From: Chloroflexota bacterium
Lineage (GTDB): Bacteria; Chloroflexota; Anaerolineae; Anaerolineales; Villigracilaceae
NCBI GenBank assembly: GCA_039961775.1
Contig: JABRVZ010000003.1
Span: 83,272-147,271 of the forward strand
Direction: 5' to 3'
DNA length: 64,000 nt
Numbering within the stretch: position 1 is the stretch's first letter; each line of letters opens with the position of its first letter. Below are positions 40,463 through 63,673 of the stretch, one piece after another. Both the position numbers and the translations under genes were made by a program. Below the pieces are notes generated by a model. The model made no database searches. It was not told where the DNA came from and was given only the letters and a program-made list of their open reading frames with translations.

Positions 40463-42976
40463 TTACTTGTCCTTTCCGTCCGAAGCCTTGGGCAGGATTT
40501 CCACACGGGTGGCGCCAAGCGCCTGACGCAGTTCCTGCAGGGCGGTTTCGATCATGGCTTGCGGGTCGTTATGGTTGCGTATCTTGCCGGTGATTTCCGA
40601 GACCAGCCGTTCGCGTTCGGCGCGGCGGGTTGTTTCTTCGAACAGGCGGGCGTTTTCTGCGGAGAGCGCCACGCGTTCCGCCACCGCCTGAATGAGGTCT
40701 TTTTCGTCCTCACCCCATTGGGATGCGGATGCAGATTGGACGACCAGCCTGCCGATGACTTCGCCGCGCAGTTCGATCGGGACGACAATCGAGGTTGTTT
40801 CAGCCTTCTCAGCCTTTTTCTTGTCTGGAAGCGGCATGTCCAACTTGATGGGCTCGGTGAGGGGCACTGCCCCCATGGTATTGTAGCGGTAGCCGAGCAG
40901 TTTTTGGCTGTGCGGCAAACGTTTCCATGCTTCGCGAGTGGACTGGCGCATGAGTGTTTGCAGTTCTTCAAGCGCGCGGTTGGAAGCATCGAACAGACGC
41001 GCATTTTCGATGGCGAGGCTTACCTGTTCGGCGAGCAGACTGAGCGTTTGCACGTCTTCTTCGGTGAAGGCGCCGACTTCCGTGCTTTGCACGTCGAGCG
41101 CGCCGATGACTTTGCCGCCGCTGAAGAGGGGCAGCGCCATTTCGGAGTGGGTGTCGGGGAGGTCGGGGTTGTTGAAGTAGACGGCATCCACCCCGACGTC
41201 GAGGGCGATGCGCGGTTTTCCGCTTCCCGTCACGCTGCCGACGATGCCTTGTTCGCCTACTTTCAGGCGGTGTCGCCTTGCCAGCATTCTCTGACCGCCT
41301 TCGCTGTTAGCCGCGGCAAGTACGGCGTATTCGTTGTTTTCATCGAGCAGGAAGATGCCGACATGGTAAAAGCCGTACTTTTCGCTGATGACCGACGTCA
41401 CGTGCGGGAGGAGTTCCTTGGGGTCGCGGATGGAAGCGATGGATTGGGCGACCTGCGCCATTGCCTCGAATTGTGCCGCGCGGCGGTGAAGTTGGGCGTT
41501 TGCCGCTTCCAGCTCACGTCCGCGTTGTTCGACTTCCCGGGTGCGTTCGGCGACGCGCATTTCGAGCGAGTCGATGGATGTCTTGAGTTCCGCCGCCATG
41601 GCGTTGAGGGTGGAGGCAAGGGTGCCGATTTCGTTTTGCTCGGTGATGGCTGCGCGCGCTTCCAGGTTACCTTTTGCCATTTCTTCGGCGGTACGGGTGA
41701 GCGAAAGCAGAGGGGCTATCAGGCTGTTGCTGAAATTGCGGGTGGCGAGCAGGGTGAGCCCGAAGATGCCCAGAACGACGAAGAGACTGATGCCCAGCGC
41801 ATTGCGGCTTTCGCGTTCGAGTTGTTGGCGGGCTTCCAGCGCTTTGGCGAGCATTTCATTGACCGGTACGATGATTGCCAGGCTGAAGCCCGCGCGTTGT
41901 ACCGGGCGGTAAACGACGAACCTCCTGGTGCCGTTCAGGCTGAGTTCTGTGAAGCCGCTGTTGCCGGCGGTCATTTCGGTGAGTATGGGCGCGAGTTCTC
42001 TGGCGGTGCTTCCCAGGTTGGTGGCAGTGAGTTTGCCTCCCAGCGGTAACATGTTCGGGTTGATGTTCAGATCGGCGTAGCCCGCATTGGGCATGGCAAT
42101 CAGCCGCCCGTCGCGGTCGAGCAGGAATGCGTAGCCGCTCTCTGCCACGCTGATATTACCGACGATTTCCGAGATTTTAGTTAGTTGAATATCCTGCGCA
42201 ACGACGCCAGCCAGTCTGCCTGCCGCATCGTAGACCGGCGCGCTGTTGGTGATGACAATACCGTTGAGCGCGGCGTCCAGATACGGCTCTGACCAGACCG
42301 CCCCTTTGCCAGGATTTGCTTCCGGCGCCGCCGCCGTGTACCAGGGTCTGCCGGTGACGTCGAAATCGGGAGGGACGATGGCGGCAAGGTCTATGTTGGG
42401 GTAATAGAGCGTGTACCCCGAAGAACCGCCAAAGTACACGGCGATGACATCGGGATTGGCTTCAAGGATGGAGGGGGCAATCAAGTCCATGTGGCGGATG
42501 ATGTTCAAATCCGCTTTCATTGAGTCGGAGAGGTCGGCTGCGGCAGGGATAAATACGGAGCCGATTTCTGTGTTGGGGTTATCCCAACTGCCCTTGTCGT
42601 TGCGGGAAAGCGATGTGCCGGCGTCCCAAAATGCGCCGGTTTCGAAAGACTGCCGGTTCAGCAGAAGGTTCTGGTCATATTCTCTCAACGAGAGGATGCC
42701 TGCCTCCAGCGACGCGAAAAAGTTCGATAAAGTTTCTGTCTTTCGGTCGGCTGTAATGGCAAGCAGGGTCTCGGCTTCATTACGTGTGGCGGCGTCGAGA
42801 CGTGAAATCAGGGCGGAGTTGGTCTGCCGCGTGCGGATGAATACGAAGACGCCCATGATGGCAAGCGCCAGAAACACGATGGCAATACTGCCGCGAACCA
42901 GCCTGTTGCGAATGGACGGCTGAGGCGCTGAATAGGATTGCGGAGAACCGCCGGTGGGTTTCACTGCATCTGTCAT
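40463..42976 (-). CDS. TM-dCache-TM-HAMP-GAF receptor with split-GAF tail, no catalytic domain
   Basis: FDVTGRPWY..WSEPY dCache, HAMP EIGTLA, conserved GAF, PIELRGEVIG...ENARL...RERLVSEI tail. ATGA overlap with the upstream gene. Confidence 0.85.
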   Translation of the reverse strand: MTDAVKPTGGSPQSYSAPQPSIRNRLVRGSIAIVFLALAIMGVFVFIRTRQTNSALISRLDAATRNEAETLLAITADRKTETLSNFFASLEAGILSLREYDQNLLLNRQSFETGAFWDAGTSLSRNDKGSWDNPNTEIGSVFIPAAADLSDSMKADLNIIRHMDLIAPSILEANPDVIAVYFGGSSGYTLYYPNIDLAAIVPPDFDVTGRPWYTAAAPEANPGKGAVWSEPYLDAALNGIVITNSAPVYDAAGRLAGVVAQDIQLTKISEIVGNISVAESGYAFLLDRDGRLIAMPNAGYADLNINPNMLPLGGKLTATNLGSTARELAPILTEMTAGNSGFTELSLNGTRRFVVYRPVQRAGFSLAIIVPVNEMLAKALEARQQLERESRNALGISLFVVLGIFGLTLLATRNFSNSLIAPLLSLTRTAEEMAKGNLEARAAITEQNEIGTLASTLNAMAAELKTSIDSLEMRVAERTREVEQRGRELEAANAQLHRRAAQFEAMAQVAQSIASIRDPKELLPHVTSVISEKYGFYHVGIFLLDENNEYAVLAAANSEGGQRMLARRHRLKVGEQGIVGSVTGSGKPRIALDVGVDAVYFNNPDLPDTHSEMALPLFSGGKVIGALDVQSTEVGAFTEEDVQTLSLLAEQVSLAIENARLFDASNRALEELQTLMRQSTREAWKRLPHSQKLLGYRYNTMGAVPLTEPIKLDMPLPDKKKAEKAETTSIVVPIELRGEVIGRLVVQSASASQWGEDEKDLIQAVAERVALSAENARLFEETTRRAERERLVSEITGKIRNHNDPQAMIETALQELRQALGATRVEILPKASDGKDK

Positions 42977-45834
42977 GCGATACTTTCTCCGTCTGAGTCG
43001 CCGAATTGGATGATGACTTCTGAGCCAGGCAGGGCGCGTCCCAGTTCTTCGACGGCGGTCTGCAGCACGTTGCGCATGTTGATGGATGCGCCGATTTTGG
43101 CGGAGACTTCGCCGATCTTTGCCTCTTTGGCGGCGCGGCGCTGTGATTCCAGCAGGAGGCGGGCGTTGTCGAGGGCGAGCGCCAGGCGGTCTGAAACGGC
43201 TTGAGCAAGGTTGATTTCGTCCTGATTCCAGCGGTGGTTGGGCAGAGGGGCTTTGATGTTGAGCACACCGATGGTTTGTCCGCGCAGTTTGACCGGGACG
43301 GCAATGGCTGGCTGGGAGAGGGCGTCTCCGCTGTTCACCACTACCACGCGTCCCTGTTTGAGCGCTTTGCGGATTTCCTCCGACATGACTGGTTTGGTGA
43401 GTCTCTGCCCGCCGGTGGCGGTTTGTTGGTAACCAATCCTTTCTGCCTGGCGGATAAATGCGCTCCATTCCCGACTTTGAATCTGGGCGTACAATGACTC
43501 GGCTTCTTCACGCGCCTGGCGCATTTGCCCAAAGAGACGGGCGTTTTCAATGGCAATGGCAACCTGGTCGGCGAGGATGCTGAGGGTTTGGGCGTCATTT
43601 TCGGTGAAGGCGCCGGGCTTGTCACTTTGTACATCCAGAACGCCGATGGTGTCGCCTCGATAGTTGAGGGGCAGCGCCATTTCGGAGTGGGTGTTGGGGA
43701 GGTCGGGGTTGTTGAAGAAAACGGCATCCGCTCCCACGTCGAGGGCGATGCGGGGTTGTCCGGTCTGGATGACGGTGCCTACCAGTCCTGTGCCGATTTC
43801 CAGGCGGTGCCCGCGGGCGAGCATCTTCTTTCCGCCTTCGCTGTTGGCGGCTTGTAGGATGGCAAAGCGGCGGGTCTCATCCACAAAGAAGATGCCGACA
43901 TGATAGAAGTCGAAGCGTTCGCTGATGAGGCGGGTAACGAGAGGCAGCAACACGTCGAGCCGTTGTTCGCTGGCGATGAGGCGGGAGATTTCGCTAATGG
44001 ATTGAAGGTCGTGCGCGCGCTTTTCACTGACCAGTACGGCGTTTTTCAGGTCCAGCGTTCGTTCGCTTACACGCTGTTCGAGCCCGGCAATCAGGTCGCG
44101 CAGTTGGGATGTCATGTAGTTGAAGGCGACTGCCAGCGCGCCGGTTTCGTCGCCGCTTTCGATGTTTGCCCGGATATTGGTATCGCCTTTGGCGATTTTT
44201 TCTGCCACCTGTTTGAGCTGGGTGATGGGAGCCGCAAGCACCTGGGCAAAGCCAGTTGCCGCCGCCGTTGCTGCCAGTGCAATCAGAATTGCAAACAAGG
44301 TGATGTTGCGCGTTTGAATTTGAATTGGCTGGAGCGCCTCGGTTTGATTTTGGATGGAGACGGCATGCCAGTTGAGATCTGTGATGAGGGTGCTCTTTCC
44401 ATTGAGTTGAACAACATCGGTGACGCGGGCGTGGCTTGCCAGGATGGGAATTTCATCGTGGAAGGTTTCATGGTAGGGTTCGGTGGATTCCAGGAGTTCG
44501 TTGATGTTCAGCGACGCAACGGGTTTTAGTATGGTTTCGTAGGCGCCGTCTTCCTTGAGCCGCAAGGAAATTTCCTGCCCGTTGGGGAGGTAGATGTCGG
44601 TGTGGCCGGTTTGACCGAATAAACCGGATGTCAGGGTGTTGGTGAAGATGGATATATCCAGGGTGGTGCGTAGAACGCCGATAGGCTCTGTATATCCCGG
44701 GGGCTGAATGCGAATTGCCATGATAACGCCAATTGCATTGATGCTTTCGTCGTATTCCGGTTGACCGATGTAGCCGCCTTGCTCGTAGGCAGTGCGCCAC
44801 CATGTTTCGTCTGCCTGATAGTAATCGGATGTGCTGTTCGTGATGGCGATGTTCACTCCCTGGCGGTTGGTGAGGATGATTTCGATGTGCTGGGGAAATT
44901 TTTCCTGGAATTGGCGGAGTTCCTGGCTGAGAGGGGCGTTCAGGATGTCACTCACGAGAGGGTCGGCGTAGTTGCGGGCGGCATTGGCAGAGCGCCATTG
45001 TTGGTCGCGGCGGACGATTTCTTCTTCGCTCAGGGGTTTCTGCGCGCTGGAAGATGAAGCAGTCTGAATGACAAGCGGATTCAACGCCAGCGTTTGAAGG
45101 AGGTCTCTCTCGTGCCCGAGGGTTTGACCGACTTCCAGTGCCTTTGAATTTGCCAGCGTGGAAAGTTGTCCGCTGATGATGCGCACCAACGTGGCGCGCA
45201 GGGTGTTGCTTGTGAGGGCTGCGCCAAGTCCAACCGTACCCAGCACGAGAGCGGCAAAAACGACGATCAATTTGGTGCGCAGGGTGTAATTACGGAATTG
45301 CCGTGCAGTGACATGCCCGAACAACAGAATGACCGTTAGCAATATGCCGGGCAGGAAGAAACGAATGATGGCTGGCGGAGGCAGGCGGAAGGCAGGCGGG
45401 AAGATTTCGACCATCATGGCGGCGATTCCACTGACGGTTCCCCAAATGACCGCCTGGGTGACCTGCCTGGCCGGCAGTGTTTGCCCCGCGATGACAGCGG
45501 TGAGAGCCAGGATGGAGATGCCAATGAGCAGCCCGATGCCTTGGATCAGCGCCACAGCAGCGATGAACGTGATTTGCAAAGCAATCAGGATGAGCCAAAT
45601 GGCAGAGGCGAGACGCCGCCGTCGCAACAGGAAGAGGCTGACAAGCAATGCCAGCGCCAGAAGCCAGATGTCGGCGCTCCAGGCATACAGTTGCCAGTTG
45701 CCCAATTGCAGCCCCAGCGCGAGATAGACGGATGCGGCGAGGATGGAGGCCGGCAAGCCAATCAGGATAATGCGCAGGGCGTTGCGTTCTTCGTTTGTAA
45801 AGTTGGAGTCGAAGCGGAATGGATTACTAATCAT
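42973..45834 (-). CDS. Multi-TM + Cache + HAMP + GAF receptor with split-GAF tail
   Basis: N-terminal hydrophobic helices, SDYYQADETWW Cache-type segment, HAMP DETGALA, conserved GAF and tail. Confidence 0.85.
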   Translation of the reverse strand: MISNPFRFDSNFTNEERNALRIILIGLPASILAASVYLALGLQLGNWQLYAWSADIWLLALALLVSLFLLRRRRLASAIWLILIALQITFIAAVALIQGIGLLIGISILALTAVIAGQTLPARQVTQAVIWGTVSGIAAMMVEIFPPAFRLPPPAIIRFFLPGILLTVILLFGHVTARQFRNYTLRTKLIVVFAALVLGTVGLGAALTSNTLRATLVRIISGQLSTLANSKALEVGQTLGHERDLLQTLALNPLVIQTASSSSAQKPLSEEEIVRRDQQWRSANAARNYADPLVSDILNAPLSQELRQFQEKFPQHIEIILTNRQGVNIAITNSTSDYYQADETWWRTAYEQGGYIGQPEYDESINAIGVIMAIRIQPPGYTEPIGVLRTTLDISIFTNTLTSGLFGQTGHTDIYLPNGQEISLRLKEDGAYETILKPVASLNINELLESTEPYHETFHDEIPILASHARVTDVVQLNGKSTLITDLNWHAVSIQNQTEALQPIQIQTRNITLFAILIALAATAAATGFAQVLAAPITQLKQVAEKIAKGDTNIRANIESGDETGALAVAFNYMTSQLRDLIAGLEQRVSERTLDLKNAVLVSEKRAHDLQSISEISRLIASEQRLDVLLPLVTRLISERFDFYHVGIFFVDETRRFAILQAANSEGGKKMLARGHRLEIGTGLVGTVIQTGQPRIALDVGADAVFFNNPDLPNTHSEMALPLNYRGDTIGVLDVQSDKPGAFTENDAQTLSILADQVAIAIENARLFGQMRQAREEAESLYAQIQSREWSAFIRQAERIGYQQTATGGQRLTKPVMSEEIRKALKQGRVVVVNSGDALSQPAIAVPVKLRGQTIGVLNIKAPLPNHRWNQDEINLAQAVSDRLALALDNARLLLESQRRAAKEAKIGEVSAKIGASINMRNVLQTAVEELGRALPGSEVIIQFGDSDGESIA

Positions 45835-47770
45835 TTTGGCTTCCCATCGTGTCCGCATGGAGTTGTACCAGCACTTCGGAGCCGCCCAGGGCGCGGCTGA
45901 GTTCTTCCACGGCGGTGCGCAGGATGGCGTCAATCTGGGTGGTGGCGGTGATTCTGCTGGAGATGTCGGTGGTGATGCGTTCGAGTTCTGCGCGCCGCTG
46001 GGTGGTTTTGAGCAGCAGCGAAGTTTCGAGCGCCAGTGACAGGCGTTCTGCCACGGCTTCGGCAATGTCCACTTCGTCTTCATCCCATTCGTGTTCGCCG
46101 CGGGTGTGGATGTCGAGCACGCCGATTACCTCGCCGCGCAGGCGAATGGGAACGGCAAGCGTGGCGTTTACGCCGCTTTCCGCCACTGTCTGTTTTTCGG
46201 TCAGCGCTTTGCGGTTATGAGCGTTCATCCACGGACGGGAGAGAGGCGCAACTTCATCGCCGGATGCCTTGAAGCCGATTCTTGCGCTGTCGGCTTGCAG
46301 AATGCGCCAGGCGTCCTGCAGGTAGGCGACGGATGTTCTTTGGGCTTTTTCCAGCAGTTCCTGCATGGATTCGAAGGAGCGGGCATTTTGAATTGCCACG
46401 GCAATCTGGTCGGCAAGGGTGGTCAGCACGCGGACGTCTTCCTGCTGGAAGGCGTTGGGCTGGGTGCTTTGTACATCCAGGACGCCGATGGTTTGTCTGC
46501 CGATGATGAGAGGCAGGGCAATTTCGGAGCGAGTTTCGGGGAGGTCGGGATTGTCGAAGTACACGGCATCCGCTCCCACGTCCAGGGCGATGCGGGGAGC
46601 GCCGAGGGCTGAGACGTAGCCAACGATGCCGGTCTGCCCGACCTTGAGCTTGTGTCCGCGCGCGAGCATTCTCTGTCCGCCGGGGCTGTTGGCGGCGCGC
46701 AGGACGGCGTACTCGTTGTTTTCGTCCAGGAGGAAGATGCCCACATGGTAGTATCCCATCCGCTCGCTGATGGCGGTTGTGATGCGCGGAAGCAGGCTTG
46801 GCAGGCTTTCAAGGGAGGTTGCGGCTTTGACGATTTCTGAAATGATTTCGAGCTGACCAGCGCGTTTTTCGAGCGTTTCAACGGTCTGTTGAATTTCTTC
46901 GTTTTGTACGTTCAGGCTGGCGGCTTGACGCCGAAGTTGCTCCTCGTCTGCCTGCTGAACGGCGAGCAGGTCGTTGAAACTTTCGATGACCTGGTTGAGT
47001 TCACGGATGCCGGTGTGCAGTTCCAGCCGTTTGCCTGCTTCCCGAACGCTGGAGGTGGCTTTCGCCAATTCCAACACGGGATTGGCAATTCGTGTGCCTG
47101 CCAGCCAGCCCAGCGCCGCGGCGCCTGCGGCGGACGCCAGGAACAAAAGCACAAAGGTGCGGAAAAACTCCTGTTGTTGCGCCAGGATGTCCTGTGCCAG
47201 AATATCCACGCCGACGATGCCTTCCAATTGCCCGTCGGAGCGGTAGAACGGAGCATAGGCGGTCAGGTAGGTGCCGAATTCATCGGTGTAGAACTCGGTT
47301 TCGACTGCCGGGGCGCGCAAGGTATCGAAGTTTTCAAGCAGGAACCCGCTTGGGCTTTCATAAACCGAGCCAATTTCAACCGGCTGGTACTCTTCGGGCG
47401 GTGCGCCGGGTTCGTGACCGGCGTCCAGGACGAAGTAGATTTCACCCGCTGTATTTTTGCGCATGGTGTACACGTACAGGATTTCCGGGTCGGTGGCGGC
47501 AATGGCGAAGCCTTTGGCTTGCAGTTCCCGGTAGGCGTCGGTGTCCATGTCGGCAGGGGTTTGCAGTTGCGCATGGAGGTCGCCGTTGATTTGCAGGGCG
47601 GCGTTCGCGGCAATGGCTGTCAGTTTGTGCTGCTTTTCGCGGAGCAGGTTATTGCGCGCTTGCGAGTAGGAAAGCGAAATTGTCAGCGCACTGATGAGCA
47701 CACCGGCAATGGCAAAACCAATGGCAAGACGGAAGCGCAGGCTGGTCAGCCGTTCCATTAAGGCTTTCAT
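45827..47770 (-). CDS. TM-single Cache-like-TM-HAMP-GAF receptor with split-GAF tail
   Basis: YVYTMRK..YFVLD...YTDEFGTYLTAYAP...GVD sensor, conserved GAF and tail. ATGA overlap. Confidence 0.85.
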   Translation of the reverse strand: MKALMERLTSLRFRLAIGFAIAGVLISALTISLSYSQARNNLLREKQHKLTAIAANAALQINGDLHAQLQTPADMDTDAYRELQAKGFAIAATDPEILYVYTMRKNTAGEIYFVLDAGHEPGAPPEEYQPVEIGSVYESPSGFLLENFDTLRAPAVETEFYTDEFGTYLTAYAPFYRSDGQLEGIVGVDILAQDILAQQQEFFRTFVLLFLASAAGAAALGWLAGTRIANPVLELAKATSSVREAGKRLELHTGIRELNQVIESFNDLLAVQQADEEQLRRQAASLNVQNEEIQQTVETLEKRAGQLEIISEIVKAATSLESLPSLLPRITTAISERMGYYHVGIFLLDENNEYAVLRAANSPGGQRMLARGHKLKVGQTGIVGYVSALGAPRIALDVGADAVYFDNPDLPETRSEIALPLIIGRQTIGVLDVQSTQPNAFQQEDVRVLTTLADQIAVAIQNARSFESMQELLEKAQRTSVAYLQDAWRILQADSARIGFKASGDEVAPLSRPWMNAHNRKALTEKQTVAESGVNATLAVPIRLRGEVIGVLDIHTRGEHEWDEDEVDIAEAVAERLSLALETSLLLKTTQRRAELERITTDISSRITATTQIDAILRTAVEELSRALGGSEVLVQLHADTMGSQND

Positions 47771-52517: not shown

Positions 52518-52520
52518 GGA

Positions 52521-53906: not shown

Positions 53907-53920
53907 ATTGTCGTTTGCGC

Positions 53921-55804: not shown

Positions 55805-57966
55805 TCTGCCTGTTCCGTAAGTTGGATGCTGACTTCCGCATCGCCCAGCGACCTGCCGATTTCTTCGACGGTTGTTCGCAGGATGGCATCGAACTCGGAT
55901 GCAGAACTGATGGCGCTTGTCACTTGCGAGATTGCCTGTTCACGTTCGGCTTTCAAGCGGGCTTCCTCGAAGAGGCGGGCGCTTTCCAATGCGCTTGCAA
56001 GACGTTCCACTGCCAGCGTAATGGTTTTGATGGTGTTGGGATTGTAGTTTTCCCTGAGTTTCAGGGAGACGACGCCGATGGGCTGACCGCGCAGTTTGAT
56101 GGGAACCGCCACTTTTGCCGGCTGTGAGACGCCTTTTTCGCTTCCAGCCTGGACGATGGGGCTGCCGGCGCGAAGGGCTTCTTCTCCCGCTTCGGGCATT
56201 TCCTGGAGGGGTTGAATGCGCACGTTGTCGAAGCGGTAGCCGGCTTTTTCGAGCAAGCCTGTTTCAACGAGCGCCCTCCATTTTTCGCGGGTGGTTTCGC
56301 CGTAGGCGCGCTGGAGTTCTTTGAGGTTTTCTTCCACCTGCTCGAGCAGGCGCGCGCGTTCGATGGCGATGCCGATCTGGTCGGCGATGATTTGGAGAAT
56401 GGCGGTATCTTCTCCACGCTGGAATGCCTGTGGCTGGTTGCTTTGCAGATCGAGAACGCCGATGGTGCGGTTTGCTACTTTAAGGGGAAGCGCCAGCGCG
56501 GAACGGGTGTCGGGGAGAAGCGGAGGCTGATTGTCTGGAGCAGTGGGGAGGTCCGAGGTGGATGCGAGAGTAGGCTCGCCGGTGGATGCGGTTCGCGCAA
56601 TGAAATCGGCGCCGGTGATGGGTAGTTTGTAGCCTTCAGCGATCCTCTGTTTGCCTGTGGGCGAGGAAGCAGAAACGGGAACGGCAAATTCCCGTTTGTT
56701 GTCAAGCAGATAAATGCCGGCATGGCGCACCTGGAAGCGCGCCGAAAGGGATGTGGCTGTCAGTTGAAGGAGACTCTCCAGGTTGGATGTAGCGGCGATG
56801 TCGCGGGCAATTTGGGAAACGAGGTAGAGTTTGTTGGTCTGGTTTTGGAGTTCCTGCGTGCGCTGGGCGACCTGAATTTCGAGATTTTCGGCGTTGGCTT
56901 GTAATTGTTGGCTGGCGGCGCTTAATTTTTCGATTAGCCGGGTATTGTCTGCTATGATGAATATTTGCCGGGCGATGGTGAGGAAGACGGTCAGGGCGGT
57001 TGCAACGAAAAGCCCGTAGGCGGGGATGCCAGGTTCTTTCCCCGAGGTGGCGGCGTAGAGTGAGACGAGGACGCTGGCGATGAGGGCGGTAATGGAAAGG
57101 ACGGCGCTTTGCCAGACCGTGACAGGCTTTACGGCGGAGGGGATGTTGGTGCGGGTGTCGGTTTGGCGCAGGGCGGAAATGCCAATGAAGTAGTAACTGA
57201 CGCTCCACAGGGCGTCCACAGGGCTGCCTGATGTGTAGGTTTCCTGCAAGACTGCTCCGGCATAGATGATGTCGGCAAGGATGTAGGCAGACATTCCGAG
57301 TGCAAGGATGAAAAGAGCCTGGCGGGCGCCGGGGTGGTTTCTTTGCAGGATGAGGCTGATGATGCTGGCAAGCAGGAGCGCATCCATGCCGGGGTAGGCG
57401 CCTGCAACCCATTTTGCCAGCCAGGTTTCGCCGCCTGCCGCGGCGGTGGGGGCAATGATGAAATACCAGAGAATGCCGGTCACGCTGGTCATGGTGATGA
57501 CCAGGTCGAGGTTGTGCGTGCGTTTCAGGGCAGGGTCTTCTTCCAGGGTAGGGATGGAGACAATGCCGGCGAACGCCAGCGGGTAAAATACGAGATAGAA
57601 AATATCTGGAATGTCGGGAAAGCCAACGCCCTTTGTGAGGTCAATGGCTGTGTAAAGAATGTCGCCGATGACCAGGGAGAACAGACTTAGAGCAAGGAAT
57701 CGCCAGGCGCGGCGCGTGCGCAAGTCGAGGTCGGATTGACGCGCTGTGAGTGAGGCGCTGACGGCGGCGAAAAAGCCGAGCGGCAGGTAACCGAGCCCGG
57801 CGATCAGTTCCTCGTAGGCGGGGTCTGTCCATTTGAAAAGAATCCAGGAGGTAAAGACCAGCAGGTATAACCCTGCCGCTGCTGCCCAGGGGAATTTCCA
57901 TCCCTCGAGCCAGGCGGGAATGCGGCGGGTTGCGGCTGGTTGCGTTGTGTTGGTTTGCGTGTCCAT
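55801..57966 (-). CDS. Multi-TM (MASE-like) sensor + GAF receptor with split-GAF tail
   Basis: About 9 hydrophobic helices (RRAWRFLA, PDIPDIFYL, AYPGMD, YILADIIY), divergent GAF, tail. Confidence 0.83.
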   Translation of the reverse strand: MDTQTNTTQPAATRRIPAWLEGWKFPWAAAAGLYLLVFTSWILFKWTDPAYEELIAGLGYLPLGFFAAVSASLTARQSDLDLRTRRAWRFLALSLFSLVIGDILYTAIDLTKGVGFPDIPDIFYLVFYPLAFAGIVSIPTLEEDPALKRTHNLDLVITMTSVTGILWYFIIAPTAAAGGETWLAKWVAGAYPGMDALLLASIISLILQRNHPGARQALFILALGMSAYILADIIYAGAVLQETYTSGSPVDALWSVSYYFIGISALRQTDTRTNIPSAVKPVTVWQSAVLSITALIASVLVSLYAATSGKEPGIPAYGLFVATALTVFLTIARQIFIIADNTRLIEKLSAASQQLQANAENLEIQVAQRTQELQNQTNKLYLVSQIARDIAATSNLESLLQLTATSLSARFQVRHAGIYLLDNKREFAVPVSASSPTGKQRIAEGYKLPITGADFIARTASTGEPTLASTSDLPTAPDNQPPLLPDTRSALALPLKVANRTIGVLDLQSNQPQAFQRGEDTAILQIIADQIGIAIERARLLEQVEENLKELQRAYGETTREKWRALVETGLLEKAGYRFDNVRIQPLQEMPEAGEEALRAGSPIVQAGSEKGVSQPAKVAVPIKLRGQPIGVVSLKLRENYNPNTIKTITLAVERLASALESARLFEEARLKAEREQAISQVTSAISSASEFDAILRTTVEEIGRSLGDAEVSIQLTEQAE

Positions 57967-57970
57967 GCGG

Positions 57971-59623
57971 TTACCTTCTGGAGCGCCTCTTTTCGGGTGT
58001 TTGGGCGGCTATGTCACTGACGAAAACGGACGCTTCCAGCACATCTGGTATTTGACCCAATTCGCGGGCGGCGGTTTGGAGCAAGGCGTCAATGTCCATC
58101 ACCTGGCTGAAGCGCAGGGCAAGTTCGCTTACGGTTTGTTCCTGTTGGGAGCGCTGGGTGGCTTCTTCGATGAGGCGCATGTTGTCGAGTGCAAGTCCGG
58201 TCTGGTATGCCACCTCCTGAACCATTTCTTTGTCGAACTGGTTCCAGGGGGCGTTGTCTTTGCGGGCGATGGAGATGACGCCGATTTTCTGTCCGCGCAG
58301 GGTGATGGGGATTTTCAGGGCGTTGTCTTCGTTTTCCAAAGTTCCCCCTGCGCGGACGCCAAGCGGAGTGTAGGTGTAAGCCACGCCGCCCTGCCGCGCC
58401 CGCTGTTCCCATGCTTGGCGGGTGCGGGCGGCAGTGAGGGCTTCGATCTGCATGAGCGCTGTCTGGGCTTCTTCGAGCAGGCGCATTTTTTCGATGGCGA
58501 CTGCCGCCTGGCTGGCAAGGGTTTCGAGAACGTCGAGGTCGTCTGTGCTGAATGCCATGGGCTGGCTGGACTGAATGTCGAGGACGCCGATGACGCGGTC
58601 ATGAATCATCATGGGAACGGCGGCTTCGGAGCGGGTTTCGGGGAGGTGGGGGTTGTCGAAGAAAACCGGATCCGTTCCGGTGTCCAGGGCGATGCGGGGT
58701 TTCTTCAGGGCGGCAGCGTATCCGACGATTCCTTCCGTGCCGACTTTGAGAGAATGTCCCTTTTCGATCATTCGTTTGCCGCCTTCGGAGGATGCCGAGA
58801 CGAGGATGACTTCGTCGCCGTTTTCGTTCATGAGGAAGATGCCGGCGTGATAAAAGCCGAATTGCTCGGTGATCAGGTTGACGATGAATTTGAGGATGGA
58901 GTCGAGGTCTTGCAGTTCTGCGGTTTGACGGGCGATATAGGATGCGGCGCGGAGTTGCTCGGTTTTTTGCCGGAGGCCGGCGGTGCGCTCTTCGACGCGT
59001 TTTTCCAGTTCGGCGCGCTCGTGCGTGAGGGCGGCAACTGCTTTTTGAAACCGTGAGGCAACGTCTTTGAATTCGGTTTTTAGCAGGTAGATTGCCCAAA
59101 TGGCGGCAGCAGAAATGAAGAAATAGTCTGCCAGGTAAGAGAGCCACTCCGCCGCGCTGGTATCCGGCGAAACTGGCGCAATGAGTGTCAGGTATCCAAA
59201 GGAATTAAGTGCGCCGACGGCGGCGATGCTGAGGATGTTTATTCCAAACATCCAGCGGTCAGCGCCGCGGTCGAAGAGCAGGGCGGCGAAGATGTTTGCC
59301 GTCAGCAGGTAGGCGGTAGCGCCGGACCAGGGACCAATTTGCAGAAGGACAAAGAGCCCCATCAGGTAGAGGCTTGTAATCAGAACGGCGGCTTTTAGTC
59401 TGTAGGGCAGAGGCGTGAAGGCAAGGAGCAACAGCACCGCATAGACCAGCAGGAAGGAGAATATTTCATTGCGGTCGAGGAGGGGGATGTTGGCGGCGAG
59501 AAGGACCAGCCCCAGTCCGGCAATGACGCGCAGTATGGCAGCGAGAAATGTTGCCCGCCAGCGATCGTACTGGAAGGAAGTTTCATCCGGCTGATTGAAG
59601 GACGGAAGTTCAGGCGTGGTCAT
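57971..59623 (-). CDS. About 5-TM sensor + GAF receptor with split-GAF tail
   Basis: Hydrophobic head, LEKRVEERT, GAF with ALDTGTDPVFFDNPHLP, tail. GAGGA SD before ATG 59623. Confidence 0.85.
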   Translation of the reverse strand: MTTPELPSFNQPDETSFQYDRWRATFLAAILRVIAGLGLVLLAANIPLLDRNEIFSFLLVYAVLLLLAFTPLPYRLKAAVLITSLYLMGLFVLLQIGPWSGATAYLLTANIFAALLFDRGADRWMFGINILSIAAVGALNSFGYLTLIAPVSPDTSAAEWLSYLADYFFISAAAIWAIYLLKTEFKDVASRFQKAVAALTHERAELEKRVEERTAGLRQKTEQLRAASYIARQTAELQDLDSILKFIVNLITEQFGFYHAGIFLMNENGDEVILVSASSEGGKRMIEKGHSLKVGTEGIVGYAAALKKPRIALDTGTDPVFFDNPHLPETRSEAAVPMMIHDRVIGVLDIQSSQPMAFSTDDLDVLETLASQAAVAIEKMRLLEEAQTALMQIEALTAARTRQAWEQRARQGGVAYTYTPLGVRAGGTLENEDNALKIPITLRGQKIGVISIARKDNAPWNQFDKEMVQEVAYQTGLALDNMRLIEEATQRSQQEQTVSELALRFSQVMDIDALLQTAARELGQIPDVLEASVFVSDIAAQTPEKRRSRR

Positions 59624-61568
59624 GTTCCTCATCCAGTTTCAGTTCAATAGAGGCGCCGGAGGCATCGAGGCGTTTGCCCAGTTCTTTCACTACGGTTTGC
59701 AGAACGCCTTCCACCGAGCCGGATGCCCAAATTTTGGCGCTGATTTCTGCGAGGGCGCGTTCGCGCAGTGCAATTTGGCGGCTCTCAGAGACGAGACGGG
59801 CATTTTCCAGCGCAATGGCGGCTTGCGCGGCGACAGCGTCCACCAGGCTTCTTTGTTCGGGCGTCCATTCGGCGCGTCCCTCCAAAGTGATTTGCCCAAA
59901 GACCTGATTGCGGAGTTCGATGACGCTTTGCAGGATTTGGCTGGCAGATTCGTTCGGCTCGCCGATTTCGTATTCGAGCGCGTCGTTATAGGACCTGATG
60001 CTTTTCCAGCCTTCGAGGAGGTATTGCTTTTGGATAGCGCGCAGTTCTTGAATGCTTTGCTGCGCTTCCTGGAAGAGACGGGCATTTTCTAACGCGGCGG
60101 CAATCTGGCTGGCGACGGTTTGCAGGGTTTCGATGGTTTCTGCGTCGAAATCAGCGGTTCTGGTGGAATGGATGTTCAATGCGCCGAGCACACGGTCGCC
60201 GATCATGAGCGGCAGGGCAACTTCAGAACGGGTGTAAGGCAGGAGCGGGTTTTCGAGGCGCGGTTTTTCTTCCGCTGTATTTTGTACGATGCGCGCCGTT
60301 TTTTCGCGGATGCATCCCGCCACCATGCTTCTTCCTGAGATTTCCAGGCGGTGACGGTTTTGCTTGAGGACGTTGCCCGCCTGCCCGGTGGCTTCGCGCA
60401 GTTCCGCCCATTTTTCGCTGGGGTCGAGGAGGTAGATGGCAGTGTAATAGTAGCCGAAGCGGTCGGTAATCAGGCTGGCGACTTTGTTGAGCAGCTGGTC
60501 AATATCCAGGAGGGAGGAAGCCACTTTGCCCACCTCGATGGTTGCGGTGAGCTGTTTGGTGCGGTCTTTGACTTGTTGCTCCAGCGTGGATTGTAATGTT
60601 TCGAGGCGGGAAATCATGCGGTTGAATTGGATCGCCACTGCGGCGAGTTCGTCGGTGGCAGTGACAGGAACGCGCTGCCGCAGGTCACCCTGTTCGATTG
60701 TTTGGAGGACGTCGGTCAATTCCTTGATAGGGTCTGAAACGGAACGAGTAGCTATGTAGGAAAATGCGCCGCCCAGCACAAGCATAAGAGCGCTGAGCAG
60801 GAGCGACTGAATTTGCAGGTCGCGGAGGATTTGAAGTGGCTGCGTGTCGGTGTAGAGGGCGCGGAGGGTCTGACGGAATTCAACAGGGGCGATGACTGCC
60901 AGCCCGATGACGATGAGCCCGATGATGAGAACGCGGAATTTGAAGCCCAACAAAGTGCCGCTTTGTTCCTGCAATTGGGTCTCGTAGTCTCTGGGTAGCA
61001 GAATCAACCTGGCGGGGGTGGTGAGGCGTTCGACTATCAAAACAGTGAAGATGGTCCAGCCGATAATGGAGGCTAGCCCGCCAAGGAAGAAATAGATGAT
61101 AAATGAGGTGGATGTTGATGTTGGCTGGAGGAGGGAGACGAGCGCATCCTCCCGTATCAGTGCCATGATTTTCAGGATGGGCGGCGGTAGAAGGATGACA
61201 ATCAGGTGGACCACGAGGGCAATTGCGCCATAGAGAGATGCAAAGTTGGTTGCCTGTTTCCAGGCAAGGCGTTCCTGGGTTTCATCTGCGGGCAGTGCGT
61301 TTTGTTGACGCCATTGATTCAATCGTTCTCTAGCGTCGGGAGTCAATTCCCAGAGGATGGCGAAGATGACGCCTTCACTGATGAGTAATAGAACAGGCAG
61401 CAGCCATGTCAATAGTCCGCGCAATTCTTCGTCCGGCGCGGCAGTCAGGAAGATGACCGCCAGCCCCGGGATGGTCCCCGCCAAGCCGATGACCTGGCTG
61501 GTGAAGATGGCGAGGAGAAGATACCATCCGCCTGTCCGCTTCAGTACGAGTTCGTTAAACCGTTTCAT
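59610..61568 (-). CDS. Multi-TM + HAMP + GAF receptor with split-GAF tail
   Basis: Hydrophobic head, HAMP DELAAVA, GAF (NPLLPYTRSE), tail. ATGA overlap. Confidence 0.85.
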   Translation of the reverse strand: MKRFNELVLKRTGGWYLLLAIFTSQVIGLAGTIPGLAVIFLTAAPDEELRGLLTWLLPVLLLISEGVIFAILWELTPDARERLNQWRQQNALPADETQERLAWKQATNFASLYGAIALVVHLIVILLPPPILKIMALIREDALVSLLQPTSTSTSFIIYFFLGGLASIIGWTIFTVLIVERLTTPARLILLPRDYETQLQEQSGTLLGFKFRVLIIGLIVIGLAVIAPVEFRQTLRALYTDTQPLQILRDLQIQSLLLSALMLVLGGAFSYIATRSVSDPIKELTDVLQTIEQGDLRQRVPVTATDELAAVAIQFNRMISRLETLQSTLEQQVKDRTKQLTATIEVGKVASSLLDIDQLLNKVASLITDRFGYYYTAIYLLDPSEKWAELREATGQAGNVLKQNRHRLEISGRSMVAGCIREKTARIVQNTAEEKPRLENPLLPYTRSEVALPLMIGDRVLGALNIHSTRTADFDAETIETLQTVASQIAAALENARLFQEAQQSIQELRAIQKQYLLEGWKSIRSYNDALEYEIGEPNESASQILQSVIELRNQVFGQITLEGRAEWTPEQRSLVDAVAAQAAIALENARLVSESRQIALRERALAEISAKIWASGSVEGVLQTVVKELGKRLDASGASIELKLDEEHDHA

Positions 61569-63673
61569 TGCCTGTCCTGGGTTTCTTCATCGGCGATACC
61601 AAGCCTGGCGTGTATCCGGCTGGCACCGGTCACGCGGGTCAATTCGCTGACGGTGGTGGTAAGGATGGTCTGGATGTCGGTGGTGCGGCGGATTTTGTCG
61701 GTGATCTCAAAGAGCGTTCGTTCGCGCTCCGCCTGGGCGCGGATTTGTTCGAGAAGCCTGGCGTTGGCGATGACTGCCGCCAAACTACCGCCAAGCGTGC
61801 CAAGCAGTTCTTCGTCTGTTTCGGTATAGGCGTTGAGTTGTTCGCTTTCCACGTTGAGAACGCCGAGCAGTTCTCCGCGGTAGATCATGGGAACGGCAAG
61901 TTCGGAGCGGGTGTTGACGCTGCCCTCGACGTAGCGCGCATCTTCCTGGACGTTGTTGATGCGCAGGGTGCGGCGGTGAGCCGCCGCCCAGCCGGTAACC
62001 CCGCTGCCGATAGGGATTTTGACTTCATAAATGTCAGGCGCGTATCCGACTGCGGCTTTCACTTCGAGATATTTTTTCTCGCGGTCTGCCAGCAGAATGG
62101 TCACGCGGTCGCCGCCGAGGGTTACCTGCAGTCCGCTGACGGCGGATTCGAGCGCCTCCTCCAATGTGGTGCCGGAGGCGGCAGATGTGGTGATGTGGTG
62201 CAAAAGCCGGTGCTGCGCCAGGTGTTCCTGGGTTTCGGCGAAAAGTTCGGTGTTGACCACGGCGGTGCCGAGTTGGTCTGCGAGGATTTGCAGCGTGCGC
62301 AGGTTGTCTTCCGCGAAGGCGTAGGGAGTTTTGCTTTGAACATCCAGCACGCCGACCACGCGGTCGCCCACGCGCAAAGGAAGCGCCGCTTCGGCGCGCG
62401 TATCCGGGAGGAGGGGATTGGGGTAATACGTGGCGTCGCGGCTTGTGTCGTTGACGATCAACGCTTCGCCTTTGCCTGCCACAAAGCCGACGATGGATTT
62501 CGACCCGATTCCCAATTTGAAGCCGGAGCGTTTCAGTTGTGCGCCGGCGTCGCCGGTGGCTTCGCGGATGACCACATATTCTCCGCTGGCGTCTTTGAGG
62601 AAGACGCTGGCGTGGTAGAAGTTGAAGCGGGAGCGGATCAGGTTGACCGCTTTTTCCAGCAGTTCGTCCAGGTGCAGGGAGCTGCTGATGTCGCGGGCAA
62701 TTTCTGCCGCTGTCTCGAATTGAAGCGCGGTTCGTTTGCTTTCTTCCAGTACGCGAACGTTGTAAATCACGCCGGCAACCTGATTGGCAACTGAGATGAG
62801 GAAGTTCAGGTCGTTTTCGTTGAAACTGTGTTCGTTTTCCAGGTCTTGAACGATGAGCGCTCCGATTGCTTCACCCTGCGCCAGAAGCGGAACTCCCATC
62901 CATGAACGGGCTGGTTTTCCGGCGATCTTGGCGCCCATGGCGAGGGCGCGGTTCATGGTATCGTCCACCAGCATGAGGGGTTCGCGGGTGCGAATCAGGA
63001 TGGAGGTAAGCCCCTCGCCGAGCGGGAACGCTTCAATGGTGGAAATTTTTCCATCCTCGAATAGAAACGGAACGCTGATGGAGTCGGTCTTCTTTTCATA
63101 TAACGCAATGACGAAACCGTATTCGCCGAGGACGTTGCGAACGTGCTCATAGATGATCGAGTAGAAACTTTGCAGGTCGCTCACACTTGCGGCGCTGGCG
63201 GCGAGAGCGTTCAGCGCTCTCATTTCCGCAGCGCGGCGGTCACTGACCGGTTCGGTGGGTGAAATTTTGGTTGTGATGGAGTTTGCGGTCAGGCGAATGG
63301 TGCGGTTGAAGGCGGTGACGACTTCGTCGTCGAGGATTTGTCCTTCTCTGGCGCCAATTAAAACAACGCCGCGCAGTTGACCGTCTTGCAGGATGGGTAC
63401 ATACGCGGCTTTTTCGCATCCCAGTTGTTTGGGGTAGGCGAGCAGCGGCGGCGGAATGGTGGACTGCCCTTTCAGGTTCACGGTAACGGGTCCGTCTTTG
63501 AGATACCCTTCCATCACATCCCGCAAAAGTTCCACGCCGCGCGGAATGGTGGCTTGCACATCCTGGCTCTGCGGGTCTGAGAACTGGGTGAGTTGCAGAT
63601 GGTTGCCCGCTGCGGTAAAGAAGGCGGTGACAAAAAAGTTGCTGACGTTCTCGTTGGGGATTCGAGTAGCCAT
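61565..63673 (-). CDS. Soluble four-GAF protein ending in the N-half GAF stub, no catalytic domain
   Basis: Four GAF-like units, no TM helix. C-terminal AERERTLFEITDKIRRTTDIQTIL..VSELTR..GASRI. Confidence 0.85.
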   Translation of the reverse strand: MATRIPNENVSNFFVTAFFTAAGNHLQLTQFSDPQSQDVQATIPRGVELLRDVMEGYLKDGPVTVNLKGQSTIPPPLLAYPKQLGCEKAAYVPILQDGQLRGVVLIGAREGQILDDEVVTAFNRTIRLTANSITTKISPTEPVSDRRAAEMRALNALAASAASVSDLQSFYSIIYEHVRNVLGEYGFVIALYEKKTDSISVPFLFEDGKISTIEAFPLGEGLTSILIRTREPLMLVDDTMNRALAMGAKIAGKPARSWMGVPLLAQGEAIGALIVQDLENEHSFNENDLNFLISVANQVAGVIYNVRVLEESKRTALQFETAAEIARDISSSLHLDELLEKAVNLIRSRFNFYHASVFLKDASGEYVVIREATGDAGAQLKRSGFKLGIGSKSIVGFVAGKGEALIVNDTSRDATYYPNPLLPDTRAEAALPLRVGDRVVGVLDVQSKTPYAFAEDNLRTLQILADQLGTAVVNTELFAETQEHLAQHRLLHHITTSAASGTTLEEALESAVSGLQVTLGGDRVTILLADREKKYLEVKAAVGYAPDIYEVKIPIGSGVTGWAAAHRRTLRINNVQEDARYVEGSVNTRSELAVPMIYRGELLGVLNVESEQLNAYTETDEELLGTLGGSLAAVIANARLLEQIRAQAERERTLFEITDKIRRTTDIQTILTTTVSELTRVTGASRIHARLGIADEETQDRQ

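Follow-up and report, generated by a model that had tools for sequence, protein, structure and literature searches.

Two-component signalling is normally wired one sensor to one kinase, on the same chain. To our knowledge, only the chemotaxis array is well understood as a means of connecting many receptors to one kinase; such chemosensory arrays combine many MCPs with CheW and one CheA, and are positioned by ParA-like proteins (ParC/PpfA). Completion of an incomplete fold by the terminal extension of another protein is the principle by which subunits of chaperone-usher pili (Fim/Pap) undergo donor-strand complementation, and it has been proposed that some PH domains are split, with two proteins each contributing a part. 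In the GAF sheet, strand 1 adjoins strand 5. The tandem GAFs of PDE2A/PDE5 and CyaB2 form parallel dimers along their connecting helices; both of their GAFs are full size and ligand-binding, and the catalytic domain comes next on the same chain.

The locus described here lies in a window of 64,000 nt from a Chloroflexota bacterium (GTDB lineage Anaerolineae; Anaerolineales; Villigracilaceae; assembly GCA_039961775.1, contig JABRVZ010000003.1, positions 83,272-147,271). It contains ten minus-strand paralogs, g1-g10, which share a common tail of 159-191 aa C-terminal to a full GAF domain. The tail comprises a reduced GAF, a long linker helix and a terminal stub of about 60 residues. As in chemosensory arrays, many receptors with varied inputs share one conserved distal tip and would share one common kinase, and a ParA-type ATPase is found in the cluster. 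Unlike in these arrays, Pfam detected no MCP signalling domain, CheW or CheA in any of the twelve proteins or in the neighbouring ones; a GAF fragment forms the tip, and a receiver-fused PLP enzyme is the likely output. The hairpin, W..EE helix, long helix and next-domain start of phytochrome and cyanobacteriochrome spines (SyB-Cph1 GAF-PHY, 8W26; Cph2, 4BWI; Anacy_2551g3, 6OAP) could be aligned with the tail, and GAFs of this class usually start with the motif seen in the stub, ERER..S.I..KI...LDL..ILQT.V.E....L....V. In contrast to that class, the tail has neither cysteine nor bilin pocket, its middle domain is cut to ~110-130 aa, and the chain ends after strand 1 of the next domain, with no output domain on the polypeptide. 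Fim/Pap pili and split PH domains belong to the same class of mechanism as two of the readings discussed below, although their folds (Ig-like or PH) are unrelated to GAF and all but one of the ten receptor domains here seem complete, as judged from sequence and prediction; only the kinase resembles, by its sequence, the acceptor subunit of a donor-strand system. Literature searches returned no description of these tails, arrays or operon.

Organization of the Receptor Array

The array and its neighbours are listed below in the order of transcription, with positions counted from the first letter of the window.

63689..64000, minus strand: receiver-domain gene 5' of g0, cut by the window end (Pfam Response_reg 3e-16)
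61565..63673, minus strand: g0, soluble multi-GAF protein, 702 aa, three GAF stretches by Pfam
61568-61768, minus strand: g0 stub, with no reduced GAF ahead of it; the stub HMM matches residues 637-698 (E 3e-14)
59610..61568, minus strand: g1, TM + HAMP + GAF receptor, 652 aa; tail 59613-60089, stub 59613-59807
57971..59632, minus strand: g2, MASE11 + GAF receptor, 553 aa; tail 57974-58492, stub 57974-58186
55801..57966, minus strand: g3, multi-TM + GAF receptor, 721 aa; tail 55804-56361, stub 55804-55986
53921..55804, minus strand: g4, HAMP + GAF receptor, 627 aa; tail 53924-54466, stub 53924-54103
52521..53906, minus strand: g5, TM + GAF receptor, 461 aa from the ATG at 53906; tail 52524-53066, stub 52524-52745
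50772..52517, minus strand: g6, multi-TM + GAF receptor, 581 aa; tail 50775-51344
50946-51344 and 50775-50963, minus strand: reduced GAF and stub, respectively, of the g6 tail
47767..50775, minus strand: g7, dCache + HAMP + GAF receptor, 1002 aa; tail 47770-48327, stub 47770-47967
45827..47770, minus strand: g8, TM + sensor + GAF receptor, 647 aa from the ATG at 47770; tail 45830-46390, stub 45830-46027
42973..45858, minus strand: g9, multi-TM + dCache-like + HAMP + GAF receptor, start at 45858 or 45834
42976-43548, minus strand: g9 tail; stub 42976-43170
40463..42976, minus strand: g10, dCache + HAMP + GAF receptor, 837 aa from the ATG at 42976; tail 40466-41008, stub 40466-40657
39676..40461, minus strand: ParA/MinD-type ATPase, 261 aa (Pfam AAA_31 4e-47, plus CbiA, ParA, MipZ)
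36498..39710, minus strand: soluble hybrid histidine kinase, 1070 aa, domains by Pfam
34746..36422, minus strand: fusion of a PALP-family PLP-dependent enzyme with a receiver domain (Pfam PALP 4e-63, Response_reg 1e-18)

The g0 stop and the g1 start codon share the overlap ATGA, and the ATPase gene starts 2 nt past the g10 stop and overlaps the kinase start with its 3' end; the genes of the array are translationally coupled. The long plus-strand ORFs over the array were taken to be antisense artefacts, the region being filled by end-to-end minus-strand genes with Pfam support. The complete tail was found in these ten genes only, and nowhere else in the 4.07-Mb genome.

Relationship of the Tails to GAF Domains

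The alignment of the ten tails recovered the motifs that the original prediction had assigned to them, at the expected place on the minus strand. W28 is invariant, the G of GY.Y and W108 of W..DE are each conserved in at least 90%, and both P(I/V)xLRGxxIG and ENARL were found. The tail end reads RRAxRE..ISEI..KI....D..ILQTAVEELGR.L...V.IQ, and the stop codon follows 3-20 residues later. The g1 protein carries a short variant of the reduced GAF, in which LEYEI replaces GY.Y and the long insert is missing.

The derivation of both tail parts from GAF domains, also claimed at the outset, was corroborated by profile comparisons and by structure-profile matches. With hhalign, positions 79-134 of the tail aligned to positions 115-169 of the paralogs' own full GAF (probability 97.8%, E 8e-13) and the stub to positions 1-55 (86%, E 4.9e-6), a similarity that in these sequence comparisons is far beyond chance. 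The Pfam GAF models (PF01590, PF13185 and PF13492 were considered) gave 37.3 bits for the g6 unit and 39.9 bits for the g9 unit on the first tail part, for a curated cut-off of 22.4, and the g9 reduced GAF aligned to Pfam GAF profile positions 17-133; the g1 unit was below the GAF cut-off (20.8 bits for GAF, 23.9 for GAF_3), and the isolated stubs of 63-66 aa had no GAF match with the Pfam models. Among phytochrome and cyanobacteriochrome GAF structures, the tail profile matched 8W26 (E 1.9e-19) and 6OAP (E 6.7e-16). Its positions 81-178 correspond to the stretch from the GAF end to the PHY start of 8W26 (E 2.4e-12), positions 124-180 to the start of GAF3 in 6OAP (domain E 2.8e-10), and positions 124-181 to the GAF starts of 6OAP, 8K9O, 2LB5, 6BHN, 6OZB and 6XHG (whole-sequence E 6.7e-16 to 3.5e-6). 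In hhalign, the N-terminal tail part showed nothing significant against the full GAF except ENARL and a weak GFRY/FGFYH match; it did not match the stub either, and mimicry of the reduced GAF's own first strand by the stub was not seen. No cysteine occurs in any of the ten tails or in the g0 stub, so that the bilin-binding cysteine of photosensory GAFs is missing and bilin attachment to the reduced GAF is therefore not possible.

Predicted Structure of the Tail

AlphaFold2 monomer models were obtained for the whole g6 protein (mean pLDDT 85.7) and for the g1 tail alone. In the g6 model, the helix 374-425 leads into a reduced GAF with strands 430-434, 437-441, 460-462, 473-480 and 483-491 (pLDDT ~80-88), and the five/six-stranded antiparallel sheet with flanking helices that characterizes the GAF fold is present. 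The unit is about 110-130 aa long and lacks the short helix that comes after the linker helix in the full GAF. The GAF ligand pocket, to which the helices between strands 2-3 and 3-4 give rise, is absent, one short helix (448-456) being left there in g6; the corresponding segment varies from 0 to 40 aa among the ten tails and is poorly conserved. The short g1 variant was confidently modelled only for the hairpin (51-59/62-71) and the helices (77-122 and 126-140), with a first strand at pLDDT ~51 and a C-terminal coil.

The reduced GAF had been taken for half a domain. This view did not survive the five-stranded g6 model, the nearly full-length profile alignment of g9 and the kinase of genome G015, in which three copies of the ~120-aa reduced-GAF unit follow each other head to tail; from this tandem repeat, the reduced GAF appears to be an independent unit. 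The single continuous helix predicted between the two tail parts was in turn recovered in both models (501-545 in g6, unbroken and followed by a helix at 550-565; 77-122 in g1), the linker helices having pLDDT values of 83-95. After them the g6 chain ends in a coil whose pLDDT drops from 78 to 43. Folding back of the stub in cis, considered unlikely from the start, likewise appears unlikely in the models, as the last strand stays coil and the tail superposes on extended GAF-to-PHY junctions. With Foldseek, the tail-only model matched phytochrome GAF-to-PHY junctions over 96-99 columns with an rmsd of 2.2-3.8 A (best-quoted match 6ptx_A, 96 columns, 2.2 A). The best long matches of the full GAF, helix and reduced GAF of g6 were tandem-GAF and GAF-PHY structures, those to PDE2A/PDE5 and CyaB2 (1MC0, 3IBJ, 3LFV, 1YKD) covering 339-384 columns (E 6e-9 to 1e-7). 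Seen through these models, the tail is the end of a truncated tandem array: a full GAF, a reduced GAF and the start of a third GAF.

The stub amounts to the opening helix and strand 1 of an additional GAF and cannot constitute a domain alone. The terminal strand is amphipathic, with a single hydrophobic face (V.I.L), and is unpaired in the AlphaFold2 models. The profile alignment indicated that the hydrophobic residues at the start of complete cyanobacteriochrome GAFs are kept in the stub.

The Kinase N-Terminus

The kinase starts with the basic peptide MPKKKPLDRRLDKLFEDI, followed by a disordered Pro/Ala-rich linker and an orphan hairpin plus helix (39348-39509), then by PAS, two GAFs, HisKA, HATPase and two REC domains (Pfam). 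Among the matches listed, all 120 kinase orthologues start with M[PS]KK and have the hairpin motif W[AVG][TAM]L[QRE][VIAL] at residues 70-89, as WATLQV in most of these 120. The combination of N-terminal peptide and hairpin pattern was met in none of the 73 H-box proteins of the representative search; as these are mostly giant kinases of other lineages, the absence carries little information. The orphan piece is closer to the reduced-GAF end (E 5.8e-14) than to the full-GAF end (E 7.2e-8) and, on this profile evidence, belongs to the reduced-GAF class. The kinase and receptor hairpins differ in sequence, and hhalign aligned the helix only.

A clear orphan acceptor, with hairpin plus helix, is recognizable only at this N-terminus. 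Of the fragment complementation first proposed for the whole array, the receptor part was lost, their domain being predicted complete, and the part concerning the kinase was retained, its N-terminus reading as an orphan hairpin plus helix. The gene order put forward with it, from a stub-only protein (g0) to a kinase with an orphan half, was found as described.

Conservation and Distribution

Arrays were present in 19/19 sampled genomes of the window's family, with 3 to 11 receptors, and the operon order was kept in the six loci examined. Orthologues of g0 occupy the first array position in G043, G085 and G234, and the ParA-type ATPase has the same position in these genomes and in CP129483. The g10 stub subtype (NDPQAMI...RVEILP) was invariably that of the last receptor in four genera, across which the stub subtypes hold their array position. 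These comparisons indicate that the operon is conserved in Anaerolineae-type Chloroflexota.

All 41 array proteins of five genomes stop at most 35 aa past the stub, one of them having an additional full GAF ahead of it. Among the best 150 representatives, 33 end in the stub and none of these 33 has an H-box. The stub subfamily scored E 1e-12 to 1e-29, vs. 1e-4 to 1e-8 for internal GAF starts. Stubs also terminate giant multi-GAF proteins of unrelated clusters, and in related proteins the tail junction runs on into complete GAFs. The tail profile matched 10,397 representative clusters at E <= 1e-30, a number that includes GAF-to-GAF junctions inside ordinary tandem-GAF proteins. By these sequence criteria the stub appears to be a selected terminal module. 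The receptors of G015 retain stubs, and the kinase adjoining them is a membrane receptor-kinase fusion without orphan N-terminal piece and without ParA; the role of the stub is therefore not strictly dependent on the socket, unless an acceptor exists elsewhere in that genome.

Discussion

The reading that we favour, with a probability of roughly 0.42, is that the eleven stubs (g0-g10) are plugs for the one socket of the operon, that of the kinase. Each receptor combines a variable membrane sensor, a full GAF and the common tail, a truncated tandem-GAF spine of the phytochrome/cyanobacteriochrome class, and would form a parallel dimer like other HAMP/GAF sensors, with the stub as its signalling tip. 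The stub would dock on the single soluble hybrid kinase, whose start offers a basic peptide like those of ParA partners, a flexible linker and a complementary orphan piece of the same GAF class (two strands and the C-terminal helix). Stub and orphan piece would thus make up one reduced GAF-like unit, and docking would rejoin the helical spine of the receptor to that of the kinase, as in an unsplit sensor kinase, with eleven interchangeable plugs for one common socket. The closest solved homologue of the stub, cyanobacteriochrome 2551g3 (6OAP), forms a "handshake" dimer in the crystal (bioRxiv 10.1101/2020.06.02.130930). It provides a precedent for a swappable N-terminal helix, an element that another chain could supply, although the handshake is a crystal contact of a complete domain rather than an evolved split, and strand 1 stays with its own domain.

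Several observations speak against this plug-and-socket arrangement. Eleven plugs for one socket imply competition or a large excess of free tips; stub and orphan piece would form only a three-stranded unit, and the comparable short g1 unit was not confidently modelled; the kinase hairpin is unlike the receptor hairpins in sequence; and the stubs of G015 persist without an orphan socket in the adjoining kinase. The conservation of the stub could also be explained by a homodimeric cap, in which a parallel receptor dimer packs its two stubs together as four helices and a two-stranded sheet that end and stabilise the spine. Kinase coupling or receptor clustering would then use other surfaces, e.g., the reduced GAF or the highly conserved full GAF, whose mean column identity among paralogs (65%) exceeds that of the tail (44%). 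In the receptors, HAMP domains are combined with long amphipathic helices whose spacing stays close to a heptad across the junction, so that two stubs must lie side by side; the stubs retained in G015 fit such a cap as well, and the three reduced GAFs of its kinase could be like-with-like docking sites. However, the cap explains neither why the soluble kinase has, behind a flexible linker, an orphan hairpin-helix of this GAF class that hardly varies, nor why the stub keeps hydrophobic residues that in complete cyanobacteriochrome GAFs would pack on the sheet. We consider it unlikely, if deserving of serious attention.

The original prediction had gone further, proposing that head-to-tail chains or swapped dimers arise as each stub fills in the half-GAF of its neighbour, with g0 first and the kinase last. 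The gene order kept across genera, an unpaired stub that the models place on a rigid helix beyond reach of its own chain, a ParA-type ATPase suggestive of a large assembly in need of positioning and the groove that the missing short helix might leave in the reduced GAF all speak for such chains. The receptor "half", however, is predicted to be complete, with five strands that include first strands of its own, and is aligned in g9 to nearly the whole Pfam profile; it behaves as an independent tandem repeat, so that no strand position is vacant. With complete reduced GAFs in nine of the ten presumed links, a receptor-to-receptor chain has no plug-in site, AlphaFold2 did not put the stub strand beside the hairpin, as might occur with strong co-variation of a stub and its own hairpin, and the array length is variable; chains are thus improbable. 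The suggestion of a circularly permuted GAF closed within one chain had in its favour the expected order of elements, from the hairpin (strands 4-5) and C-terminal helix to the stub's N-terminal helix and strand 1. It is scarcely credible given the straight 45-residue helix and the last strand left as coil in the predictions for two paralogs, the superposition of the model on extended GAF-to-PHY junctions and the continuation of the junction into complete GAFs in related proteins, and we rejected it on the AlphaFold2 and Foldseek results. We also rejected, as highly improbable, the view that the stubs are functionless relics of an old truncation that removed the kinase or further GAFs. Unsplit relatives do exist, such as the receptor-kinase fusion of G015, but the stub is a distinct and strongly conserved subfamily that ends every one of the array proteins surveyed, as well as giant multi-GAF proteins from unrelated clusters, and its subtypes keep their place in the array.

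Docking of the stubs on the kinase, the reading preferred above, could be extended to a naturally split sensor kinase, in which the GAF fragments of eleven kinase-less sensors and the hairpin-helix of a ParA-positioned kinase rebuild one GAF-like domain and pass signals along the rebuilt spine; in this full form we regard it as rather doubtful. Larger assemblies of mixed composition might likewise be driven by these fragments. These proteins make up a large, undescribed family of sensors without any output domain, all ending in the same exposed domain fragment, and the kinase of their operon starts with a fragment complementary to it. Should the fragments assemble, they would represent a natural use of protein-fragment complementation for signal wiring and a ready-made modular plug-and-socket pair for synthetic biology; should they not, the stub would still mark the output surface of thousands of orphan sensors.

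Once engaged, the kinase would phosphorylate the receiver-fused PLP enzyme, which is likely the phosphorylation target and output of the operon. Its gene lies directly 3' of the kinase in all five other loci examined. This fusion enzyme had initially been labelled threonine-synthase-like.

Operon layout and distribution

The 36.5-64 kb part of the window is occupied by a single minus-strand operon, in which adjacent genes either share 4 nt (ATGA) or leave gaps of at most about 15 nt.

Genes of the operon
63689-64000, minus strand: receiver-domain gene, immediately upstream of g0 and truncated by the edge of the window
61565-63673, minus strand: g0, soluble multi-GAF protein, first before the receptors
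59610-61568 (g1) down to 40463-42976 (g10), minus strand: ten receptors, g1-g10
39676-40461, minus strand: ParA/MinD-type ATPase, between the last receptor and the kinase
36498-39710, minus strand: soluble hybrid histidine kinase
34746-36422, minus strand: PLP enzyme (Pfam PALP) fused to a receiver domain, directly after the kinase; counterparts in loci from related genomes at L013:8999-10651, L016:5579-7249, L017:17505-19214, L018:16175-17863 and L019:15188-16864

The receptor heads all differ (multi-TM, MASE11, dCache and/or HAMP), and each is followed by a coiled coil, a single full GAF and a common tail of 159-191 aa; no Pfam output domain was found in any of g1-g10. The ten tails align at 44% mean column identity. 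The full GAF of the ten paralogs (window 41150-58700), which carries the motif NNPDLPxTRSExALPL, reaches 65%, above both tails and heads, a level that suggests a shared ligand or partner, or else gene conversion.

Between 3 and 11 tail-bearing genes make up an array, and such arrays were recovered in 26 of the 301 sampled genomes of the phylum: in all 19 sampled from the family to which the window belongs, and here and there in other families. The homologues come from Anaerolineales/Chloroflexota MAGs, in which they are annotated only as "GAF domain-containing protein", and we found no paper describing this operon or system. Four related genomes (G043, G085, G234 and CP129483) have an identical order, namely a multi-GAF stub protein, receptors, ParA, the kinase and the receiver-fused PLP enzyme, often followed by an EamA exporter. 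The more distant G015 has no ParA, and periplasmic binding proteins (Peripla_BP_6 and NMT1/THI5-like; L015:6633-7829 and L015:14285-15313) lie between its receptors; these are probably ligand-delivery partners of the adjoining sensors.

The receptor tail is predicted to include a complete reduced GAF

Every tail motif listed in the original prediction, which had read the tails as a split or permuted GAF possibly polymerising head-to-tail, is present in the alignment, and the GAF ancestry proposed for both parts was confirmed. Tail residues 79-134 (hairpin, W..DE helix and ENARL) aligned with the C-terminal third of the full GAF carried by these paralogs (hhalign probability 97.8%, E 8e-13), and the last ~60 residues, the stub, matched GAF positions 1-55 (probability 86%, E 4.9e-6). 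The first part of the tail scores above the cut-off of the curated Pfam GAF models, which did not detect isolated stubs. The tail profile also matches solved GAFs of the phytochrome/cyanobacteriochrome class: residues 150-247 of 8W26 (SyB-Cph1 GAF-PHY) align with tail 81-178, a stretch that runs from the end of the GAF through the long helix into the beginning of PHY, and the GAF start of 6OAP aligns with tail 124-180. Since it aligns to the starts of solved GAFs, the stub is, on sequence grounds, the usual beginning of this class (ERER..S.I..KI...LDL..ILQT.V.E....L....V.I). None of the ten tails contains a cysteine, which excludes bilin binding by them. In terms of membership, the parts derive from GAF and fall in the phytochrome class, but have no chromophore. 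No gene other than g1-g10 carries the whole tail in the genome of the window (4.07 Mb, 98.8% complete); the remaining matches cover tail ~76-187 and correspond to GAF-to-GAF junctions of ordinary tandem-GAF proteins.

The receptor "half-GAF" proposed earlier is instead predicted to be a complete small domain, as indicated by the g6 model, by g9 and by G015. Contacts in the AlphaFold2 models were judged solely by pLDDT, secondary structure and matches in Foldseek. The full-length model of g6 (91-sequence alignment, mean pLDDT 85.7) starts with membrane helices and a long signalling helix, followed by the full GAF (255-366) and a helix (374-425). The reduced GAF comprises strands 430-434 and 437-441, helix 448-456 and strands 460-462, 473-480 and 483-491; then come an unbroken helix (501-545), a helix (550-565) and a terminal coil in which pLDDT drops from 78 to 69 and 43. 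The tail motif W...GY.Y falls on the end of the incoming helix and strand 1, and P.xLRG..IG on the hairpin of strands 4-5, so that the reduced GAF is predicted to keep the full set of five strands that a cyanobacteriochrome-type GAF has, with a shortened pocket region. In g9, the Pfam GAF model aligned to this domain over profile positions 17 to 133. The GAF, helix and reduced GAF of g6, taken together, gave Foldseek matches of 339-384 columns to structures of tandem GAFs and of GAF-PHY. In the G015 array-end kinase, three ~120-aa reduced-GAF units stand in tandem, flanked by a full GAF and by a full GAF plus HisKA, indicating that the unit is an independent repeat. This kinase (L016:1679-5542; full GAF, three tandem reduced GAFs, full GAF, HisKA, HATPase, REC) is a membrane receptor-kinase fusion and has the appearance of a receptor and its kinase in unsplit form. 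The g1 receptor is a conserved short variant, with widespread orthologues of about 648 aa, and its tail model is confident only for the hairpin and helices.

The stub is a terminal element

In both AlphaFold2 models (g6 and g1), the stub lies at the far end of a straight ~45-residue helix and its last strand is unpaired. When the g1 tail was modelled alone, the model could be superposed on GAF-to-PHY junctions of phytochromes: 6ptx_A (96 columns, rmsd 2.2 A), 9jry_B and 6ndo_A (both 98-99 columns). The straight helix, unpaired strand and GAF-to-PHY geometry make folding back within a single chain unlikely, as originally suggested, whereas the notion of circular permutation is not upheld; we consider a permuted GAF domain folded within one chain extremely unlikely.

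All 41 array proteins considered (five genomes, several families) end within 35 residues past the stub, including g0-type proteins and a receptor with an extra complete GAF ahead of it (L015:4231-6561). The stub HMM gave E-values of 1e-12 to 1e-29 for terminal stubs versus 1e-4 to 1e-8 at points where complete internal GAFs begin. Among the best 150 cluster representatives from a library of 1.84 billion proteins, on which alone overlap was judged, 33 have the stub ending, 73 an H-box and none has both. V.I.L lines one face of the stub strand and polar residues the other, an amphipathic pattern that suits a sheet with a single covered side. These features suggest that the stub is a terminal module under selection, and we regard a functionless relic as very improbable.

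In four genera, a separate stub subtype (..KIR..NDPQAMI....L..AL...RVEI.P) marks the last receptor before ParA (window 40466-40657, L013:14591-17386, L017:10114-12903 and L018:7557-10502), and the g0-type stub (ERERxLFEITDKIRRSxDIQTIL) is likewise position-specific, so stub subtypes hold their place in the array. Giant multi-GAF proteins of other clusters (1100-2700 aa; P0362-P0511 of the representative search) share the stub, after which they continue into a tail that is acidic or Pro-rich; this ending therefore extends beyond the membrane receptors of this type of operon.

Possible coupling between receptors and kinase

The 120 listed kinase orthologues all start with M[PS]KK, mostly MPKKKPIxKRLxxLFE. 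After this basic start come a variable linker of about 50 residues and, at residues 70-89, a nearly invariant orphan piece (SLAFQ..SWATLQVLDE..R.WSQDEQLLVKQVADQLSLALENARLFQETQ) made of two strands and a helix running into the PAS domain. Its match to the end of the reduced GAF (E 5.8e-14) is stronger than that to the end of the full GAF (E 7.2e-8); the helix alone aligns, and the kinase hairpin is thus a version of its own. No other GAF-like piece of the operon is clearly incomplete.

In the tail, as observed or predicted, a reduced GAF is followed by a rigid helix and then by the start of a GAF that stays unpaired, and the kinase opens with the end of a GAF that is complementary to it. Both pieces are strongly conserved and are encoded in the same operon. 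Our leading interpretation, to which we give a probability of roughly 0.4, is that the receptors end in a truncated tandem-GAF spine with the stub as its coupling tip. More specifically, the stub might dock on the orphan piece of the kinase as a plug in a socket. Receptors would be dimers whose two stubs make up the distal tip, and this tip would dock on the N-terminal pieces of the kinase, strand 1 of the stub pairing with strand 5 and the first GAF helix bundling with the C-terminal helix. Such pairing would restore both a reduced GAF and an uninterrupted helical spine leading into PAS-GAF-GAF-HisKA. That this first helix can bundle with a partner molecule is shown by 6OAP, the closest solved homologue, in a "handshake" dimer (bioRxiv 10.1101/2020.06.02.130930). 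We consider this specific docking less likely than not, the main objection being G015, whose receptors keep their stubs next to a receptor-kinase fusion devoid of the socket.

That the stubs form a homodimeric cap is the strongest rival, though also rather unlikely. The receptor-to-receptor chain of the original prediction, in which each stub would complete a neighbour's domain, is improbable, as nine of the ten supposed acceptors look complete. In function the operon resembles a chemosensory array (many receptors, a conserved tip, one kinase and ParA), although the two have no components in common.

ParA and the PLP enzyme

The basic peptide of the kinase, coded at window 39657-39710, fits a ParA-partner peptide; it is missing from the membrane-anchored kinase of G015, the one related locus without ParA. 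The receiver-fused PLP enzyme, first labelled threonine-synthase-like, directly follows the kinase in every locus examined. Next after it in L019 are an EamA exporter and an Asp/Glu racemase, and in G015 EamA follows after one intervening gene; the output of the operon may therefore be amino-acid metabolism or export.
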